Below are positions 5,945 through 26,912 of a stretch of 64,000 nucleotides of DNA, piece after piece; positions within the stretch are counted from its first letter, which is position 1, and each line of letters begins with the position of its first letter. The notes below the pieces were generated by a model. It worked only from the letters and a program-made list of their open reading frames with translations. It searched no databases and had not been told where the DNA came from. Source of the stretch: an uncultured bacterium (lineage in GTDB: Bacteria > Fidelibacterota > Marinisomatia > Marinisomatales > UBA1611); contig CALSPG010000008.1 of assembly GCA_943788175.1 (NCBI GenBank), forward strand, positions 32,001 to 96,000, written 5' to 3'. Position numbers and translations under genes: made by a program.

Positions 5945-7687
5945 ATGAAACTAATTATCACACTTTTTATTTTATCAGTATCCATTTACAGTCAGTGTGA
6001 AGACGGAGAATTTTCTACAAATGGAATTCTAGATAGTATTAGTGTAGAAATTTTTAATGATGACGAATCTGTAAATGCATATAGCGTTTATTCTTGGACT
6101 TCTGATGAGCTTAATAGAATATTATCTGGCAATGGAATTCCAAATCATGAGGTTGGAACATTTCCTAACCCAAACAACCCGAACACTATCAGTGAGCAAA
6201 ATGTAAATGAATCTTTTACGCTCTGTCCAACATTAGTTTCAGAGACTGGTGAGCCAGCTGGAGGTCCCGCTGGTGCGATAGCTTTCGCTATTAACAGTGT
6301 GAAATTTGATCCTGCCACTGCAGGAAGGTGCAATGATGATGGTGAATGCAGTCTTGCTCAGGGACAAGGAAATTGGAGCATAGAGGCTCTTGGTCATGAG
6401 ACATTTGACTTTGGCGATGACATGAATCATGCTCATGTGCAGCCAACGGGGGAATATCACTATCATGGTATGCCAGAATTACTAATAGATTTTTTAGGAG
6501 ATAATCAAGGTATGACTCTTGTTGGGTGGGCCTCAGATGGTTTTCCAGTTTATGCCAGGTACGGTTACACAGATTCAAATGATTCAACTAGTGAATTAAT
6601 ATCGCTTCAACCAAGTTATAGATTGAAATCTGAACCTGATCTAAACCGTCCAGAAACGTTAACCTCCTTAGCAGGTGGACCTGGACAGGGCGGAACAACG
6701 CCTAATACACCAATACCGATGGGCGCTTTTACTCAAGATTTTGAATATGTTGAAGGATTAGGAGATTTAGATGAGTGTAATGGCAGGTTTGGAGTCACTC
6801 CAGAATTCCCAAATGGTATCTATTACTATTCAGTCACTGATGATTTTCCATATTTTACAAGGTGCTTGAAAGGTGAATTTGACACTGCTGGTGGTGGCGG
6901 TGGTGTTGTGGATTGTGAAGATGTACCCGCCGGTTTACCATGTTGTGGCGATGGCGCATGTGGTGGCCCTGAAACAGAAGATAATTGTCCAATTGATTGT
7001 GCAACATCGATTGTTCCTCCAGAATTAAATAGTTTTAGTCTTTCTGCTGATAGTGTAAATACTAGTCTCAATGCAGCTATTGTTATCTACAATATTGGAG
7101 CTAGTTCCTATAATGCTACTCTTTCTAGCTATTCTTTGAAATTAATATTAAATGGTGGTCCAATTAACGGAGGAGAAATAATTGAAGAGTCGGGACTATT
7201 TAATGAAGGGCTCTATGAAACTACAATCTCTGGATATTTTTTATTTCCAGCTGAGTCTAGTGAGGGGCAATGGAATGTAAGAGTTGAATTAAATGATATA
7301 AACGATAATTCAATAAATTTGAGCCCAAGTGATTTAGCGCAAAAAAACTTTCAAAATTACATCATTGTTGATAATGCTTCTCTGGGAATACCAGGAGCTG
7401 AATTACCATTACATTTTTCTTTAGATCAAAATTTCCCTAACCCGTTTAACCCCTTGACCTCCCTAAGATATGCAATTCCAGAGAGTGCAATTGTAAAAAT
7501 AACTGTTTATGATGTTCTAGGAAATATTATCAAAAATATTATAAACGAAAAACAATCACCGGGATTTAAAACAGTGCAATGGGATGCAACAAATAATTTA
7601 GGCGAACCAGTTTCTGCTGGATTATATATCTACAGTATAGAAGCCGGGGATTTTAGACAAACAAGAAAAATGATACTTTTAAAATAA
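5945..7687 (+). CDS. Secreted YHYH-family protein with Cys-rich linker and secretion/FlgD-like C-terminal domain
   Basis: NHAHVQPTGEYHYHG, DGFPVY, GDLDECNGRFGVTPEFP; C-terminal QNFPNPFNP...SAGLYIY...KMILLK. Confidence 0.88.
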   Translation: MKLIITLFILSVSIYSQCEDGEFSTNGILDSISVEIFNDDESVNAYSVYSWTSDELNRILSGNGIPNHEVGTFPNPNNPNTISEQNVNESFTLCPTLVSETGEPAGGPAGAIAFAINSVKFDPATAGRCNDDGECSLAQGQGNWSIEALGHETFDFGDDMNHAHVQPTGEYHYHGMPELLIDFLGDNQGMTLVGWASDGFPVYARYGYTDSNDSTSELISLQPSYRLKSEPDLNRPETLTSLAGGPGQGGTTPNTPIPMGAFTQDFEYVEGLGDLDECNGRFGVTPEFPNGIYYYSVTDDFPYFTRCLKGEFDTAGGGGGVVDCEDVPAGLPCCGDGACGGPETEDNCPIDCATSIVPPELNSFSLSADSVNTSLNAAIVIYNIGASSYNATLSSYSLKLILNGGPINGGEIIEESGLFNEGLYETTISGYFLFPAESSEGQWNVRVELNDINDNSINLSPSDLAQKNFQNYIIVDNASLGIPGAELPLHFSLDQNFPNPFNPLTSLRYAIPESAIVKITVYDVLGNIIKNIINEKQSPGFKTVQWDATNNLGEPVSAGLYIYSIEAGDFRQTRKMILLK

Positions 7688-8398: not shown

Positions 8399-11014
8399 AT
8401 GAAAAATATACTAAGATTATACACCATCATTCTCATTAGTTTGCTTTTTGTAAATAAAGTAAGCGCTAACGTGGATTTAACGGTTAAATCCTTAACGACA
8501 CAAAATGAGTATGTTCCAACTTACTCAGGTTCTGAATATTTACAAGGCACATTAGAGATTGGCATTACAACTGATGAAAATATTAATCACGTGCAGATGG
8601 GTATGAATCATTACAATAGCATGGGCTTAGGTTTGCCCTATGGTGGTTTAGTAGAGCAGTACGACTTTTCTATGTCATCACTTTCAGGGGCAACTATATA
8701 CGGATATCATAATATGTTCCCACAAGAATATTATATACCTGCTGGCACTACTGATGAAACTCTTATGTACATCCCGATCCTAATTTCTGAAAATAATGAT
8801 GAAGAATTTTGTATACAATATCCAGATTTTAAAGATCTTGAGGGGAATTCATTAGTTGTGAATTTAGGCGATGAATCTTGTATTTCAATTGATGAGCTTA
8901 CCAGACTTGATTCCAATACTACAGATTCAAACACATTAACCATTCAGATAATTGATTCATCTACTGGAGATGGAATTGAGGGTGTGATAGGTAATATTTA
9001 CAACTTTAATACCAATACGCTACCTTCACTTTCTTTATCTTTTGTGACAAATGACTCTGGGTATGCATTCCTCGAAGACTATCCTAATAGTACTGGAGCT
9101 ATTGAGGTCTATAGACAAGGCTATCAGCCTTCATACCAGGAATATAACTTTTCAGGATCAGAGCAGGTAACTATATCTATGGAACCTAATGGTTTTACAG
9201 ATGGTGAAACAGACACTCTAGTAATGCAGTTTACCGATTCAAATACTGGTCAAGGTATTGAGGGGGTCTCAGTAAGTATTTATTTACCAAGTATGACTGG
9301 TGAGGATTGTTGGAATGGTGCTTGTACTATTTTTGAAACAACGGATGACTCTGGGTTTATCACAGTTCAAGATTTTCCATTAGGTCCTGGTTGGATGGAA
9401 TCATATGTAGCTGGTTATAATCCTATCAGCACACAGTTCACATTTTCCGGTTCAGAGCAACTCTCATTTACTATGGAGCCTTACGGGGATTTTGAAGGTG
9501 AAACAGACACATTAGTTGTTCAAGTTGTTGACTCAAATACGGGACAGGGCATTGCTGGTGCGGAAGGTACTATTTGGAGTTTTAGTGGCAATAATAACTT
9601 TTTGGGGGAAGAGGTAGTTTTTCCGTTTGTTACAAATGAAGACGGGTATGTTTCCATTGATAATTTCCCGATTGGTTATGGTTTTGCAGAAATAATTACG
9701 CAAGGATATTTACCGGGATTTTTACAGTTTGAGTTTACTGGCTCTCAAGAATTTACCATTAGCATGAATTCTTCCGATGATGTAGGCGATAACTTTGAAT
9801 CATTAGTTTTTCAATTTGTTGATGCTCAAAATGGTGAAGCAATTGAAAATGTAATGGGTTTTGCAATGAATTATAGCGAGGGTATTATTCCTTCAATGTC
9901 ATTTGATTTTATTTCAGATGAATTTGGTTTCGCTTATCTGGACTTTCCGTTAGGCGCTGGAGTAATAGATGCTTATACAGTTGGTTACGAACATATAAAT
10001 TTACAATTCGAGTTTTCAGGTAATGAGACAATCATTGTAGAGATGCAAAGTTTAGATCAATTTAACTCCGCATCAATCTCTGGAATAGTTGGGTATGAAT
10101 TAGAACAAAATAGTTTTCTTACTCCATTTGTATTTGCAATGAATACTGATGCTTCACTGAACTCATATTGTTCATCCGTTGCGGTAGATGGTACTGGAAA
10201 TTATGAGCTACCACTCAGCCCTGGAGAGTATGTTATTGGTGCACTCTATTTTACGAACCCTAACATTGGTTGGTTTGAAAATGCGAGCGATTCTATTAAT
10301 GATATGGGTTTTCAATTACAATTTTTTGAAAATTCTATGACCTTTGAAGACGCTACAATCATTCAAGTTAATGAAGGGGAAAGTTTAGGAAATATAAACT
10401 TTAATTTTGTATCAAATGACTTTATGGCTTTTAATGGCCAAGCAGGTAATATTGTAATGGGTGAGATTACTAGTGATAATAGCATTAATATGGAATCTAC
10501 ACTTGTTTCAGTAGTTAATATGAATGGTGAAGTTTTATCCGAACAAACAATTGGTCAAGATCAAACCTTTACAATTACTGGATTAGCGCAAAATACAAAT
10601 TATATTTTGAAAGCTAGCCACGATGAATATGGTTTTGTTGAAAGGTCTTTTTCACCGAACTCTATGGTTCACATTGAAAACATAGAATTCAATTTGAGTG
10701 CACTTTCTACTATAAATGATAATAATCAGATACCGAAGGTTTTTACTGTAAGTCAAAATTTTCCTAATCCGTTTAACCCTTTGACAACCTTGCAGTACAC
10801 GATTCCAGATAATGCAGTTGTAAAAATTACGATTTTCGATAATATGGGTAGATTAGTGAAGAATCTTATGGATGGATATCAAATTGCTGGAAGAAATACG
10901 ATACAATGGAATGCTACTGATAATATGAGTCAGCCTGTCCCTGCTGGTATGTATATATATAGAATTCAAGCGGGAAGTGATGTCAAAACAAGTAAAATGA
11001 TTTATTTAAAATAA
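8399..11014 (+). CDS. Large acidic secreted protein with tandem Ig-like/carboxypeptidase-regulatory-like repeats and secretion C-terminal domain
   Basis: Signal peptide; four approx. 95-aa repeats (TL..Q..DS.TG.GI.G); C-terminal QNFPNPFNP...KMIYLK. Confidence 0.85.
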   Translation: MKNILRLYTIILISLLFVNKVSANVDLTVKSLTTQNEYVPTYSGSEYLQGTLEIGITTDENINHVQMGMNHYNSMGLGLPYGGLVEQYDFSMSSLSGATIYGYHNMFPQEYYIPAGTTDETLMYIPILISENNDEEFCIQYPDFKDLEGNSLVVNLGDESCISIDELTRLDSNTTDSNTLTIQIIDSSTGDGIEGVIGNIYNFNTNTLPSLSLSFVTNDSGYAFLEDYPNSTGAIEVYRQGYQPSYQEYNFSGSEQVTISMEPNGFTDGETDTLVMQFTDSNTGQGIEGVSVSIYLPSMTGEDCWNGACTIFETTDDSGFITVQDFPLGPGWMESYVAGYNPISTQFTFSGSEQLSFTMEPYGDFEGETDTLVVQVVDSNTGQGIAGAEGTIWSFSGNNNFLGEEVVFPFVTNEDGYVSIDNFPIGYGFAEIITQGYLPGFLQFEFTGSQEFTISMNSSDDVGDNFESLVFQFVDAQNGEAIENVMGFAMNYSEGIIPSMSFDFISDEFGFAYLDFPLGAGVIDAYTVGYEHINLQFEFSGNETIIVEMQSLDQFNSASISGIVGYELEQNSFLTPFVFAMNTDASLNSYCSSVAVDGTGNYELPLSPGEYVIGALYFTNPNIGWFENASDSINDMGFQLQFFENSMTFEDATIIQVNEGESLGNINFNFVSNDFMAFNGQAGNIVMGEITSDNSINMESTLVSVVNMNGEVLSEQTIGQDQTFTITGLAQNTNYILKASHDEYGFVERSFSPNSMVHIENIEFNLSALSTINDNNQIPKVFTVSQNFPNPFNPLTTLQYTIPDNAVVKITIFDNMGRLVKNLMDGYQIAGRNTIQWNATDNMSQPVPAGMYIYRIQAGSDVKTSKMIYLK

Positions 11015-15206: not shown

Positions 15207-16022
15207 ATGCCTGAGGGTCCAGAAACTCGAAGAATGGCTGATGGCTTATCAAAAGCAATCAAAAAAAAAGATCTAATTTCTTACCAGTTCTTGCATCCAA
15301 GTCTTGATAATCTTAACAAGCTAAAAGGTATAAAAGTAATAGACGTATCTTCATTAGGGAAAACAATTATTACCAGACTAAACATTGGTAAGAGTATAAT
15401 GACGCATAATCAATTATATGGGAAATGGACCGTAAATCTTACAGACACTATTGTTAAACATAATAGAAAATTAAGAATTGAATACAAAACCAGTAAAAAA
15501 ATTGCAAGGTTATGGTCTGCCACTGATATTGTATTACTTGAAACAGAAAAAGAGAACACGCATCATTATATCAAAAACTTAGGACCTGATGTTTTAAATA
15601 ACTTTGTAACGATTGAAACCATTGCTAATCAATTAGAATCAAAAAAGTTTAGAAATAGAAACCTGGGGGGACTTTTATTAAATCAAAATTTTATTGCTGG
15701 GCTAGGAAACTACCTTCGTTCTGAGATATTGTTCTTTAGTGGTCTTTTACCAACGATTAGACCTTCTGATTTAGATGCAGATCAAATATATAATTTATCT
15801 AACTCTATAAAGTGCATAAGTATGAGAGCTTACCACCAAAAAGGAAATACAATTGATAAAGATGATTTTTCAAAGAAATTTGGAAATATTTTCAATTTCA
15901 GATTAATCCGTCATATGGTTTTTGGAAGAAAAGACCAGCCTTGTTTCAATTGTAGCAATAAAGTAATCAAATCTGTGCAGAATTCAAGAAGACTCTATTA
16001 TTGTAGAGAATGTCAGATATAG
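15207..16022 (+). CDS. nei: Endonuclease VIII (Fpg/Nei family DNA glycosylase)
   Basis: N-terminal PEGPE, HNQLYG.W, AGLGNYLRSEILF (H2TH), C-terminal CxxC...CxxC zinc finger. Confidence 0.9.
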   Translation: MPEGPETRRMADGLSKAIKKKDLISYQFLHPSLDNLNKLKGIKVIDVSSLGKTIITRLNIGKSIMTHNQLYGKWTVNLTDTIVKHNRKLRIEYKTSKKIARLWSATDIVLLETEKENTHHYIKNLGPDVLNNFVTIETIANQLESKKFRNRNLGGLLLNQNFIAGLGNYLRSEILFFSGLLPTIRPSDLDADQIYNLSNSIKCISMRAYHQKGNTIDKDDFSKKFGNIFNFRLIRHMVFGRKDQPCFNCSNKVIKSVQNSRRLYYCRECQI

Positions 16023-16124: not shown

Positions 16125-16898
16125 ATGATAAATAAATACATAGTTAAATCATTAATTATGCTATCAATTTTAACTGGTCAGGACTCGTATTCACTTCTAG
16201 ATCAAAATCCTAGTTCATCCACTTATGGTATGAATGTCGGGCCGTTATTTTTCGATGGAAAAGTTGTGCTTCATTATTTTGGTGCCTTTACATGAGGAAC
16301 TTGTACTACCAGGTTTGGTGAGTTAAATGAAATTAATGAAGACTTAAAACAAGAAGGTTATGAAGTAGAACTGATTGGCGTGAGCAAATCTTCTTGGGTT
16401 GGGGGTATTGATAATTGGGTAAATCAAGGTAGTGCCCCAATTTGTGTTGACAGTTCTCCCTACTTGATTTGGAACGATTGGAATGCTTCTCAGAGAGACT
16501 TATTTATTACAAACTCAAATGGCGAAATTGTTTTCAAAGAAAATATAACATCAGGAATTCCAAATGATATTAATGCTATAATATTGAACTATCTATCGAC
16601 TGAAAAGGATGTTCAACCAGTCACATTCAAATTAGGTCAAAATTTTCCAAATCCATTTAATGGTCAAACACAGATTCCTTTCACTCTATTTAATCCTGAA
16701 AATATATCTGTTAATATTTTTGACATAAATGGAAGAATCATAAAAAGTTTATTTGTGGGTTATCAGAATGCCGGGTCTACTGTTCTAAAATGGGATGGGA
16801 CGAATAATTTTAATGAGATTGTTTCATCAGGAATATATTTTTACAAAATTAAAACAAGTAATATTTCATCGATGAAAAAACTGATTTTTGCAAAATAA
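16125..16898 (+). CDS. Putative secreted selenoprotein: thioredoxin/peroxiredoxin-like UxxC domain plus secretion C-terminal domain (257 aa with TGA read as Sec)
   Basis: ATG 16125 is in frame with track ORF 16380; single in-frame TGA at 16293-16295 in GKVVLHYFGAFT-U-GTC-TTRFGELNE; signal peptide; SECIS-like hairpin follows. Confidence 0.85.
16305..16323 (+). promoter_or_regulatory. Bacterial SECIS-like hairpin
   Basis: ACT-ACCA-GGTT-TGGT-G-AGT; apical GG starts 16 nt after the TGA. Confidence 0.7.
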
Positions 16899-16913: not shown

Positions 16914-17345
16914 ATGAAAAAAATATTATTTGTATGTACTGCTAATATTCATCGTAGCAGATTTGCTGAGGAAGTTTTTAATCATCTAGCCATTCAAGAG
17001 AATAAAGAATATCGCGCGTTTTCCGCTGGTCTAAGAGTAGGTGACTTTAGTTATAGAGAAATATATTATCCAGCGTTAGAACATCTTGAGTCTTTTAATA
17101 TTAAACCAATTCGTCCAAAAGAGTCCTCAATGCATATAGACGATGTAATATTAGAAGATTATTATAAAATAATTTGCATGGATAAAAACGAGCATAAACC
17201 GATGGTAGATGCAAATCCAAAGTTATCAAAATATAAATTTGAATATTGGGAAATTGTTGACATCCCTAAAGTTGAAAGCACTGTCTCTTTACCTATGTGT
17301 TATGAAAAAGTTGTTAAATTATTTAAGAATATTAATCTTAAGTAA
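16914..17345 (+). CDS. Low-molecular-weight protein-tyrosine phosphatase/arsenate reductase family
   Basis: ILFVCTANIHRS (CX5R), SAGL, IICMD, W...D.P. Confidence 0.85.
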   Translation: MKKILFVCTANIHRSRFAEEVFNHLAIQENKEYRAFSAGLRVGDFSYREIYYPALEHLESFNIKPIRPKESSMHIDDVILEDYYKIICMDKNEHKPMVDANPKLSKYKFEYWEIVDIPKVESTVSLPMCYEKVVKLFKNINLK

Positions 17346-26276: not shown

Positions 26277-26912
26277 TTGCCAACGCTTCTAATTGGTGAA
26301 ATAGATTATCTTTTAAACGTACAACCGATTTTTAATAATCATTGCGTTTCTTGCCATTCTGGGACCTTTGGGTCTGGAGTACTTGAGTTAGATTCATATG
26401 AAAGATTAATTGAAGGTGATAGTAATAATGGGCCAGTCGTGTTTCCATTTAATGCGGATAGCAGTTTGCTCTACAGGGTTTTACTACGTGACTCAGTTGT
26501 CGTTCCAAATGAACCTATATGTTGTCGAATGCCTAAGAATGCAGACCCCTTACCAATTAGTCAACAGACAACAATTTACAACTGGATTAATGAGGGTGCT
26601 CAAGGACCAAACTTATCGATAGGTTTAGAAAATCTTAGTGATAGAATAGTTGTAAGTACCTCTCCAAATCCATTTAATAATATGCTAAAAATATCATTTA
26701 GAAGTGAAAATATTTTTGTAGAAAATATAGCTATTTTAAACTTACTTGGAGAAAGAGTTAGGATAATAGAAGTTCATAATCAAACCGACGGCGTGATTTT
26801 TTGGGATGGCACTAATGACCTTGGCCAAGCTGTTACAGCTGGTATTTATTTTATTTATTTTTACCAGAATAGTAGGTTGGAATTAATACGGAAAGTATTA
26901 TTTCTCAAATAG
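26277..26912 (+). CDS. Secreted c-type cytochrome (planctomycete cytochrome C-like) with FlgD-like C-terminal domain; 5' end uncertain
   Basis: VQPIFNNHCVSCH heme motif, distal RMP, WINEGA; C-terminal PNPFN...WDGTN...AGIYF. Confidence 0.8.
   Translation: MPTLLIGEIDYLLNVQPIFNNHCVSCHSGTFGSGVLELDSYERLIEGDSNNGPVVFPFNADSSLLYRVLLRDSVVVPNEPICCRMPKNADPLPISQQTTIYNWINEGAQGPNLSIGLENLSDRIVVSTSPNPFNNMLKISFRSENIFVENIAILNLLGERVRIIEVHNQTDGVIFWDGTNDLGQAVTAGIYFIYFYQNSRLELIRKVLFLK

Follow-up and report, generated by a model that had tools for sequence, protein, structure and literature searches.

The gene at positions 16125–16898 (+ strand) of the window, by which we mean the whole 64,000-nucleotide stretch of DNA from an uncultured Marinisomatales bacterium that was analysed, appears to specify a single antioxidant-type enzyme that is exported and ends in a cell-surface sorting tail, and its in-frame 'stop' almost certainly encodes selenocysteine (Sec). 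Profile matches, alignment and the GOS dataset identify the product as a 257-residue selenoprotein precursor of the GOS 'Prx-like 2' and NF053656-like type. The family, 'Prx-like 2', was catalogued in 2008 and the protein is one of its ordinary members; the sequencing runs that contain the stretch 16125–16898 are marine.

Translation of 16125–16898 gives 257 codons followed by TAA, with codon 57 (16293–16295, + strand) as the sole in-frame TGA. Under translation table 11, the ORF list holds a 172-residue product from the GTG at 16380, 85 codons downstream of the start of the full gene. The original prediction had extended this ORF upstream by those 85 codons through the single TGA at 16293, and the extension holds: the 257 codons are there, as is a U-G-T-C motif, within F-T-U-G-T-C. 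Sec57 is the first residue of this motif and Cys60 (16302–16304) the last.

Codon 57 is, with near certainty, translated as Sec by SelB and tRNA-Sec under the guidance of a downstream hairpin, a reading with a genomic basis that agrees with what had been proposed. The rival reading, which we consider highly improbable, is that the TGA is a real stop (two short genes or a pseudogene), a Trp codon or an assembly error, and it is the public protein records that speak for it. With residues 20–160 as a protein query, 75 relatives were found among 105 candidates, and 36 of those 75, each covering at least 94% of residues 20–160, made up the aligned set. Position 57 is Trp in 36/36 of these aligned database homologs, most of the other relatives are products that end short, after the site, and a truncated 172-residue product is on record within a protein cluster of 73. 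Frameshifts elsewhere in the assembly likewise favour an error. The Trp at position 57 in database proteins is a translation artefact, because the DNA at the site reads TGA. Codon 57 was TGA in 47/47 ortholog loci (44 metagenome contigs, two genome contigs and the window), never TGG, TGT or TGC, in a search whose DNA pattern was open to any TGN at codon 57 and selected close orthologs by its other positions. These 47 loci contain 30 distinct 30-mers after codon 57. A translated search of genome contigs yielded two loci from 20 candidates, a low number due in part to a pattern that presupposed Trp at codon 57. Public protein sets hold the Prx-like 2 family either shortened after the TGA or with Trp for Sec.

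The original prediction had named three findings that would speak against it, a TGT, TGC or TGG in place of the TGA, a lack of conservation in the 56 codons upstream and an absence of selABCD from the lineage, and none of the three was observed. Besides the 47 loci, RNA-library contigs from three studies span codon 57 with no other letter among the differences shown (22 rows lie outside these, and they are contigs, not raw reads); such contigs show neither strand, level nor transcription. The 36 homologs align from the signal peptide onward, so the part upstream of the TGA is conserved. The genome uses TGA as a normal stop, at the end of 210 of 1197 long ORFs, and the code is therefore not one in which TGA means Trp. 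A stop at codon 57 is opposed by the alignment of the site with Cys, by the conservation of both halves in one frame and by the covarying hairpin next to it. The Sec/Cys pairing is seen among distant relatives (202 found, 150 listed, 146 representatives used): the 84 aligned rows that cover the motif comprise 52 CxxC, 25 WxxC, one WxxW and six other forms, and the family copy of one genome (G194) carries the Cys codon TGC at the Sec place.

A search for the Sec machinery, also proposed at the outset, found every component in the genome, which is 92% complete: tRNA-Sec (selC), adjacent selA and selB, and selD, which itself contains a TGA. Three of the features by which bacterial selenoproteins are recognised are found together, namely an in-frame UGA at a Cys-held position, its conservation in orthologs, and selA, selB, selC and selD in the genome. 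Across 301 genomes of the phylum, NF053656 matches occur in 76 (53 above the cut-off) and selA matches in 222. A strong TGA-bearing NF053656 match was present in 62 genomes, 58 of them with selA (a hand count, in which kin are not independent), and the four without selA are 77–91% complete. In two big families selA is near-absent (1/30 in f3 and 0/33 in f26), and neither has a TGA-bearing NF053656 match; those f3 genomes that were listed measure only 0.8–1.1 Mb.

A candidate bacterial SECIS lies at 16307–16320 (+ strand), 12–25 nt past UGA57, with a 5-bp stem and a GGUU loop whose first base, a G, is at +17. The hairpin agrees with the consensus SECIS geometry as given in the accessible part of a 2026 review (PMC13188914), that is, a stem of 4–16 bp and a loop of 3–9 nt with G in its first two places, 16–37 nt from the UGA. 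The consensus model in the same part of that review asks for an energy of −7.5 kcal/mol or lower, which some SECIS fail, and which the window hairpin misses (−3.0 to −4.0 kcal/mol alone). The region after the UGA folded no better than its shuffles (z −0.08 to 0.79), a competing hairpin was the minimum-energy form in 3/5 folds of the region, and an equally good hairpin, taking the window's own value as the threshold, stands at the same place after 2/262 true TGA stops.

Support for this putative SECIS comes from family comparison, as synonymous-codon constraint and covariation, with no signal from plain folding. Codon +5 ends in C in 30/30 distinct ortholog 30-mers (genome-wide, ACC 11% and GCC 10%), and the Arg codon is AGG or CGG in 28/30 (about 22% genome-wide). 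Four stem pairs hold in 114/120 cells among close orthologs, which is barely above shuffles because the columns hardly vary. Across the wider UxxC family, represented by 31 distinct sequences, the GG at +17/+18 is invariant and 121/124 stem cells are paired, against a shuffle mean of 97.3 and a maximum of 109 in 2000 shuffles; here, amino acids change in step with the stem pairs and the hairpin register differs by one base. A shifted hairpin was observed in 15 UxxU relatives; its loop G lies 18 nt past the second UGA, and 75/75 cells are paired (shuffle mean 61.4). Members of the UxxU clade (L041–L056, from genomes of families f17 and f20) have dockerin-like ends and belong to the same family as the window protein. 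They carry one SECIS-type hairpin (AGUU loop), 27 nt after the first UGA, the ancestral site being lost. UxxU proteins are already in the 2008 dataset, and the shifted hairpin was not found in the parts of the printed record available to us.

The domain that carries Sec57 (residues 19–158, 16179–16598, + strand) has the thioredoxin fold that the original prediction had assigned to it, in a ResA/TlpA/BCP shape. Its best family match is NF053656 (redoxin_TUGYCR), 'TUGYCR motif thioredoxin fold (seleno)protein' (94.9 bits, E 4e-27, cut-off 100; 88.3 bits in the genome search). The AhpC-TSA and Redoxin profiles of Pfam, which had been suggested as tests together with TIGR04183 and FlgD_ig, both stayed below threshold, whereas the latter two exceeded their cut-offs on the tail. 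An AlphaFold2 model (mean pLDDT 79) comprises two domains with a low-confidence linker between them. The top Foldseek matches of the model are ResA (E 2e-8) and related reductases, including DsbE and CcmG, and the VIA structure search gave Z scores of 17.3 (3gl3) and 16.5 (2f9s), with r.m.s.d. values of 2.0–2.3 Å over 135 residues; the Z scores of BCP peroxiredoxins were 14.3–14.8. This wide structure search returned matches to the N-terminal domain only, and the fold of the tail is assigned from Pfam and NCBIfam. A single-domain sequence search of solved structures gave a weak best match (E 0.046), and the ESM Atlas returned an unnamed cluster first, followed by AhpC/TSA-clan leads.

Arg124 (16494–16496, + strand) stands where thioredoxins have their cis-proline and peroxiredoxins their catalytic Arg. 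It is invariant in 37 close rows, and in the wider alignment of 31 family rows Arg is present in 27 and Pro in none. Sequence–profile alignments built on these 31 family domains match Arg124 to the ResA cis-proline and, for the BCP encoded in this genome, to its Arg; Cys60 pairs there with the BCP peroxidatic residue. The peroxiredoxin motif PxxxT/SxxC is absent from the window protein, in which Gly53 and Sec57 stand at the Pro and Thr places, and Cys107 is kept only within the close subfamily. We tentatively propose that the domain is a selenol-dependent hydroperoxide reductase of the envelope or surface, a plausible assignment that falls a little short of probable. The proposal gains from six outer relatives that score above the Pfam threshold for the N-domain of selenoprotein P, a UxxC domain with hydroperoxide-reducing activity. 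We know of no reductant at the cell surface, which counts against a peroxidase acting there.

The top fold matches (ResA, DsbE and CcmG) are not peroxidases and point instead to a ResA/TlpA-type thiol–disulfide oxidoreductase or isomerase that would act on the disulfides of tail-bearing proteins, either in the periplasm during transit or at the surface. The two-residue UxxC/CxxC motif kept across the family and the presence of a DsbD-family gene and 81 tail-bearing proteins in the genome fit such an enzyme; we nonetheless rate it as rather unlikely, since the usual cis-proline is Arg in those 27/31 rows and Pro in none, the window protein has no membrane anchor, and none of the 46 loci links the family, in the nearest ORFs, to dsbD or cytochrome c maturation genes. 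The 'Sec oxidoreductase' of the original prediction therefore stands as far as the UxxC thioredoxin fold goes, but the Arg at the cis-proline place makes a plain thiol–disulfide oxidoreductase less certain. According to the portions of PMC2757866 at hand, the cis-proline of thioredoxins and cytochrome maturation proteins likely aids the binding of polypeptide substrates and may keep metals from binding, and peroxiredoxins have an Arg at its place. Because Arg replaces the cis-proline, these statements lead us to rank peroxide reduction above both disulfide exchange and metal binding. A surface trap for metals or metalloids (Cu, Hg or Zn), with Sec57 and Cys60 as ligands, is unlikely and the least probable of the three. 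A double-Sec UxxU clade exists, and an Arg at the cis-proline place reportedly let a thioredoxin hold an Fe–S cluster (work attributed to Su et al., 2007), both of which would suit a trap. Against this, no third ligand is evident, Cys107 being confined to close relatives, no metal-transport genes neighbour the family loci, and Sco-type structural matches rank below ResA.

The precursor very probably crosses the inner membrane by the Sec/SPI route, exposing Gln19. Its leader (residues 1–18, 16125–16178, + strand) is hydrophobic and reads as a probable Sec/SPI signal peptide, as had been predicted, with a helix at residues 2–15 in the model; Gln follows directly in 44/45 ortholog loci that reach that place. 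The Q-rule for signal peptides was tested in Bacteroidetes, and this phylum goes unmentioned in the accessible part of that study (PMC5837995). At the other end, residues about 172–257 (16638–16895, + strand) form the C-terminal secretion domain foreseen in the original prediction, an Ig-like, type-A T9SS-like sorting domain with terminal lysines. It scores above the cut-offs of TIGR04183 (44.1 bits, cut-off 23), PF18962 Por_Secre_tail (38.9, cut-off 27) and PF13860 FlgD_ig (40.8, cut-off 27), is a separate domain in the model, and is present, with its terminal lysines, in 41/41 full-length loci (those running at least 195 codons past the TGA). Such lysines are required for secretion and such tails are restricted to Bacteroidota according to the available text of PMC10202324, and T9SS is extended to the FCB superphylum in that of PMC11205867.

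Delivery to the surface or outside by a T9SS-like route, with probable removal of the tail, is likely on these grounds. The genome contains 81 TIGR04183 tails, matches to SprA, PorU and seven PorV-family proteins, all over cut-off, and a DsbD-family gene. SprA is found in 29/31 relatives and, in close kin, occupies one frame of about 2110 residues; the genome's own sprA has two frame shifts near its 5' end (L104:300-1700; G000:C7 about 328000-329400), which are possibly assembly errors. GldM and GldN gave no match in the genome and a GldK-like match was weak, in searches that no control genome passed; likewise, GldN was found in 0/101 phylum genomes and GldL over cut-off in 0/101, again with no control genome passing. 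The phylum sample (this genome and 100 others) thus has SprA, PorV, PorU and sorting tails with no detectable GldL/M/N motor. A similar sorting tail ends three more nearby ORFs of the window, at 5945–7687, 8399–11014 and 26277–26912 (+ strand).

That missing motor, in searches lacking a positive control, leaves room for a periplasmic enzyme whose tail is an Ig-like FlgD-type domain and which makes no outer-membrane passage. FlgD_ig scores as well as Por_Secre_tail, a periplasmic location would solve the electron supply through the DsbD-family gene, and many family members are tail-less lipoproteins or have dockerin-like ends. We regard this as somewhat unlikely, given that SprA, several PorV proteins and PorU are conserved alongside the 81 tails and that the terminal lysines required for secretion (PMC10202324, in its available text) are kept in all 41 full-length loci. 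The extracellular or surface location of the original prediction is consequently backed by the encoded SprA, PorV and PorU and weakened by the undetected GldL/M/N motor and the frameshifted sprA.

The gene lies between an endonuclease VIII gene (nei, 15207–16022, + strand; NF007763, 273 bits), present in 20/46 ortholog loci, and, 15 nt downstream, a gene for a low-molecular-weight phosphatase/ArsC-fold protein (16914–17345, + strand; PF01451, 35.4 bits), present in 26/46 loci and replaced in the others. These counts come from 46 short loci, and other subclades carry other neighbours. Both neighbours represent local synteny, with the phosphatase as a possible operon partner. A search for promoters and terminators did no better than chance, with 10 sites (11.4 expected) and no terminators. 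In a quick tree of 130/155 domain rows, for which one ortholog in four was kept, the window subfamily falls in a clade (SH-aLRT 98) that includes the domain P0080, beside an over-cut-off HEY/HES/HET clade and the UxxU clade and apart from a mostly Cys-containing group.

A genome-wide screen for TGA read-through was noisy (3560 candidates, 280 after filters), and eight named genes were picked from it by eye. Besides the window gene, the likely selenoproteins of the genome are a paralog and a second redoxin (both tailed), a UxxC thioredoxin, two BCP proteins, a SelW-like protein and SelD, at G000:C1:334413(-), C6:72356(-), C2:67796(-), C5:139022(+), C5:279033(+), C5:504319(+) and C7:397476(-). 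Most of these genes have a hairpin with a G-led loop 17–23 nt after the UGA. In other proteins (P0079, P0126 and P0095), the family domain is repeated in tandem with the first Cys missing, or lies, with CxxC, at an end of a large surface protein of cadherin-like or other type. An identical stretch lies near the ends of two contigs (G000:C6:315038(+) and C8:124455(-)), possibly a repeat or an overlap.

Taken as a whole, a scheme that joins Sec recoding, T9SS-like export and a peroxidase at the surface or in the envelope is evenly poised between right and wrong. UGA57 would be decoded as Sec by SelB and tRNA-Sec, guided by the hairpin 12–25 nt downstream, and the Sec/SPI route would carry the precursor over the inner membrane, leaving Gln19 as the N-terminus. 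A T9SS-like route (SprA, PorV and PorU) would recognise the tail and probably cut it off, after which the 140-residue domain would be anchored at the surface or released. There, the Sec57 selenolate would attack a peroxide and Cys60 would resolve it to a selenenylsulfide, with Arg124, in the stead of the cis-proline, helping to polarise the active site. Re-reduction might come from a DsbD-fed periplasmic thiol chain or from small thiols outside. Should the protein prove to be displayed at the surface and to act as a peroxidase, abundant marine bacteria would be investing scarce selenium in antioxidant enzymes that face outwards.

The closest precedent is the GOS selenoproteome (PMC2398784, PLoS Genet 2008), in which, in the parts accessible to us, 'Prx-like 2' is described as a UxxC family of 99 sequences from 23 samples with low similarity to pfam04592. 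Under this heading, string matching found the window protein's 12-residue active-site string in seven Dataset S1 entries, at least three of which run through the whole C-terminal tail; paralogs of the HEY-U-G type and UxxU proteins are filed there too. Tailed members were therefore in print in 2008 and the family has an NCBIfam entry, NF053656, so that the original prediction overstated how unusual the protein is among described bacterial selenoproteins, as far as these parts of the sources go. The 2008 description differs in that the fusions drawn in its Fig. S1 exclude the window-type tail, and in that the parts seen assign the family neither a host lineage nor a chemistry and do not analyse its SECIS; the terms 'signal peptide', 'extracellular', 'periplasm' and 'SAR406' do not occur in its main text. 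The NF053656 model is passed by the genome's paralog (109.4 bits) and by P0080 of the window's own clade (100.9 bits), whereas the window protein (94.9 bits) and four orthologs (82–97 bits) fall below the cut-off of 100. NF053656 is a domain model, silent on the tail, and 'TUGYCR' was not found in the literature searched.

As far as its available part goes, the 2026 review (PMC13188914) lists a 'Prx-like thiol:disulfide oxidoreductase, UxxC/UxxU', contains no occurrence of 'secreted', 'T9SS' or 'signal peptide', and has a table that includes envelope selenoproteins (a TonB-dependent receptor, ABC substrate-binding proteins and an outer-membrane barrel). Because of this table, selenoprotein export as such is not new. 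We found no selenoprotein described as T9SS cargo in the literature searched, and subscription papers, bioRxiv supplements and recent selenoprotein-family papers, which lie outside that search, may describe export. A search for T9SS in Marinimicrobia gave one unrelated match.

Among characterised proteins, ResA, TlpA and CcmG (2f9s, 1su9 and 3gl3) share the fold, the extracytoplasmic setting and a two-residue redox motif with the window protein, which differs in that Sec replaces the first Cys and Arg the cis-proline, in its extra N-terminal loop and its sorting tail, and in lacking a membrane anchor. The BCP/PrxQ peroxiredoxins, two of which with TxxU are encoded in this genome, share the fold, an Arg equivalent to Arg124 and a peroxidatic residue equivalent to Cys60, whereas the window protein lacks PxxxTxxC, has Sec at the Thr place and is predicted to be exported. 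The selenoprotein P N-domain is a UxxC thioredoxin-fold domain of a secreted protein. The Pfam gathering score of PF04592 (23.2) is exceeded by the six outer relatives, which were found with the window's domain, but this profile matches only 2/31 family rows and gave no match to the window protein at E up to 1 and none in the genome. The SelP_N-like relatives lack the Arg. Type-A T9SS cargo of Bacteroidota likewise has a TIGR04183/PF18962 tail over cut-off, with SprA, PorV and PorU encoded, and a signal peptide, of which the leader here is a probable counterpart; the window's host differs in that it appears to lie outside Bacteroidota and in that no GldKLMN motor was detected.

From these comparisons, and from at least three tail-bearing UxxC proteins in the genome, we put forward a doubtful, speculative extension: the phylum may use a T9SS-like route without GldKLMN to display a set of selenoenzymes, in which the window's family would be an extracellular selenium peroxidase, a counterpart and distant relative of the N-domain of animal selenoprotein P, with a UxxC plus Arg site between those of thioredoxins and peroxiredoxins. 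Were this so, a T9SS-like system would work without its known motor. Relative to the literature searched, the family itself is not new; what had not been described is its T9SS-like route, the covariation of its SECIS and an active site with Arg in place of the proline. The window gene connects an orphan ocean-survey family of 2008 with genomes, with a SECIS that covaries and with a route for export.
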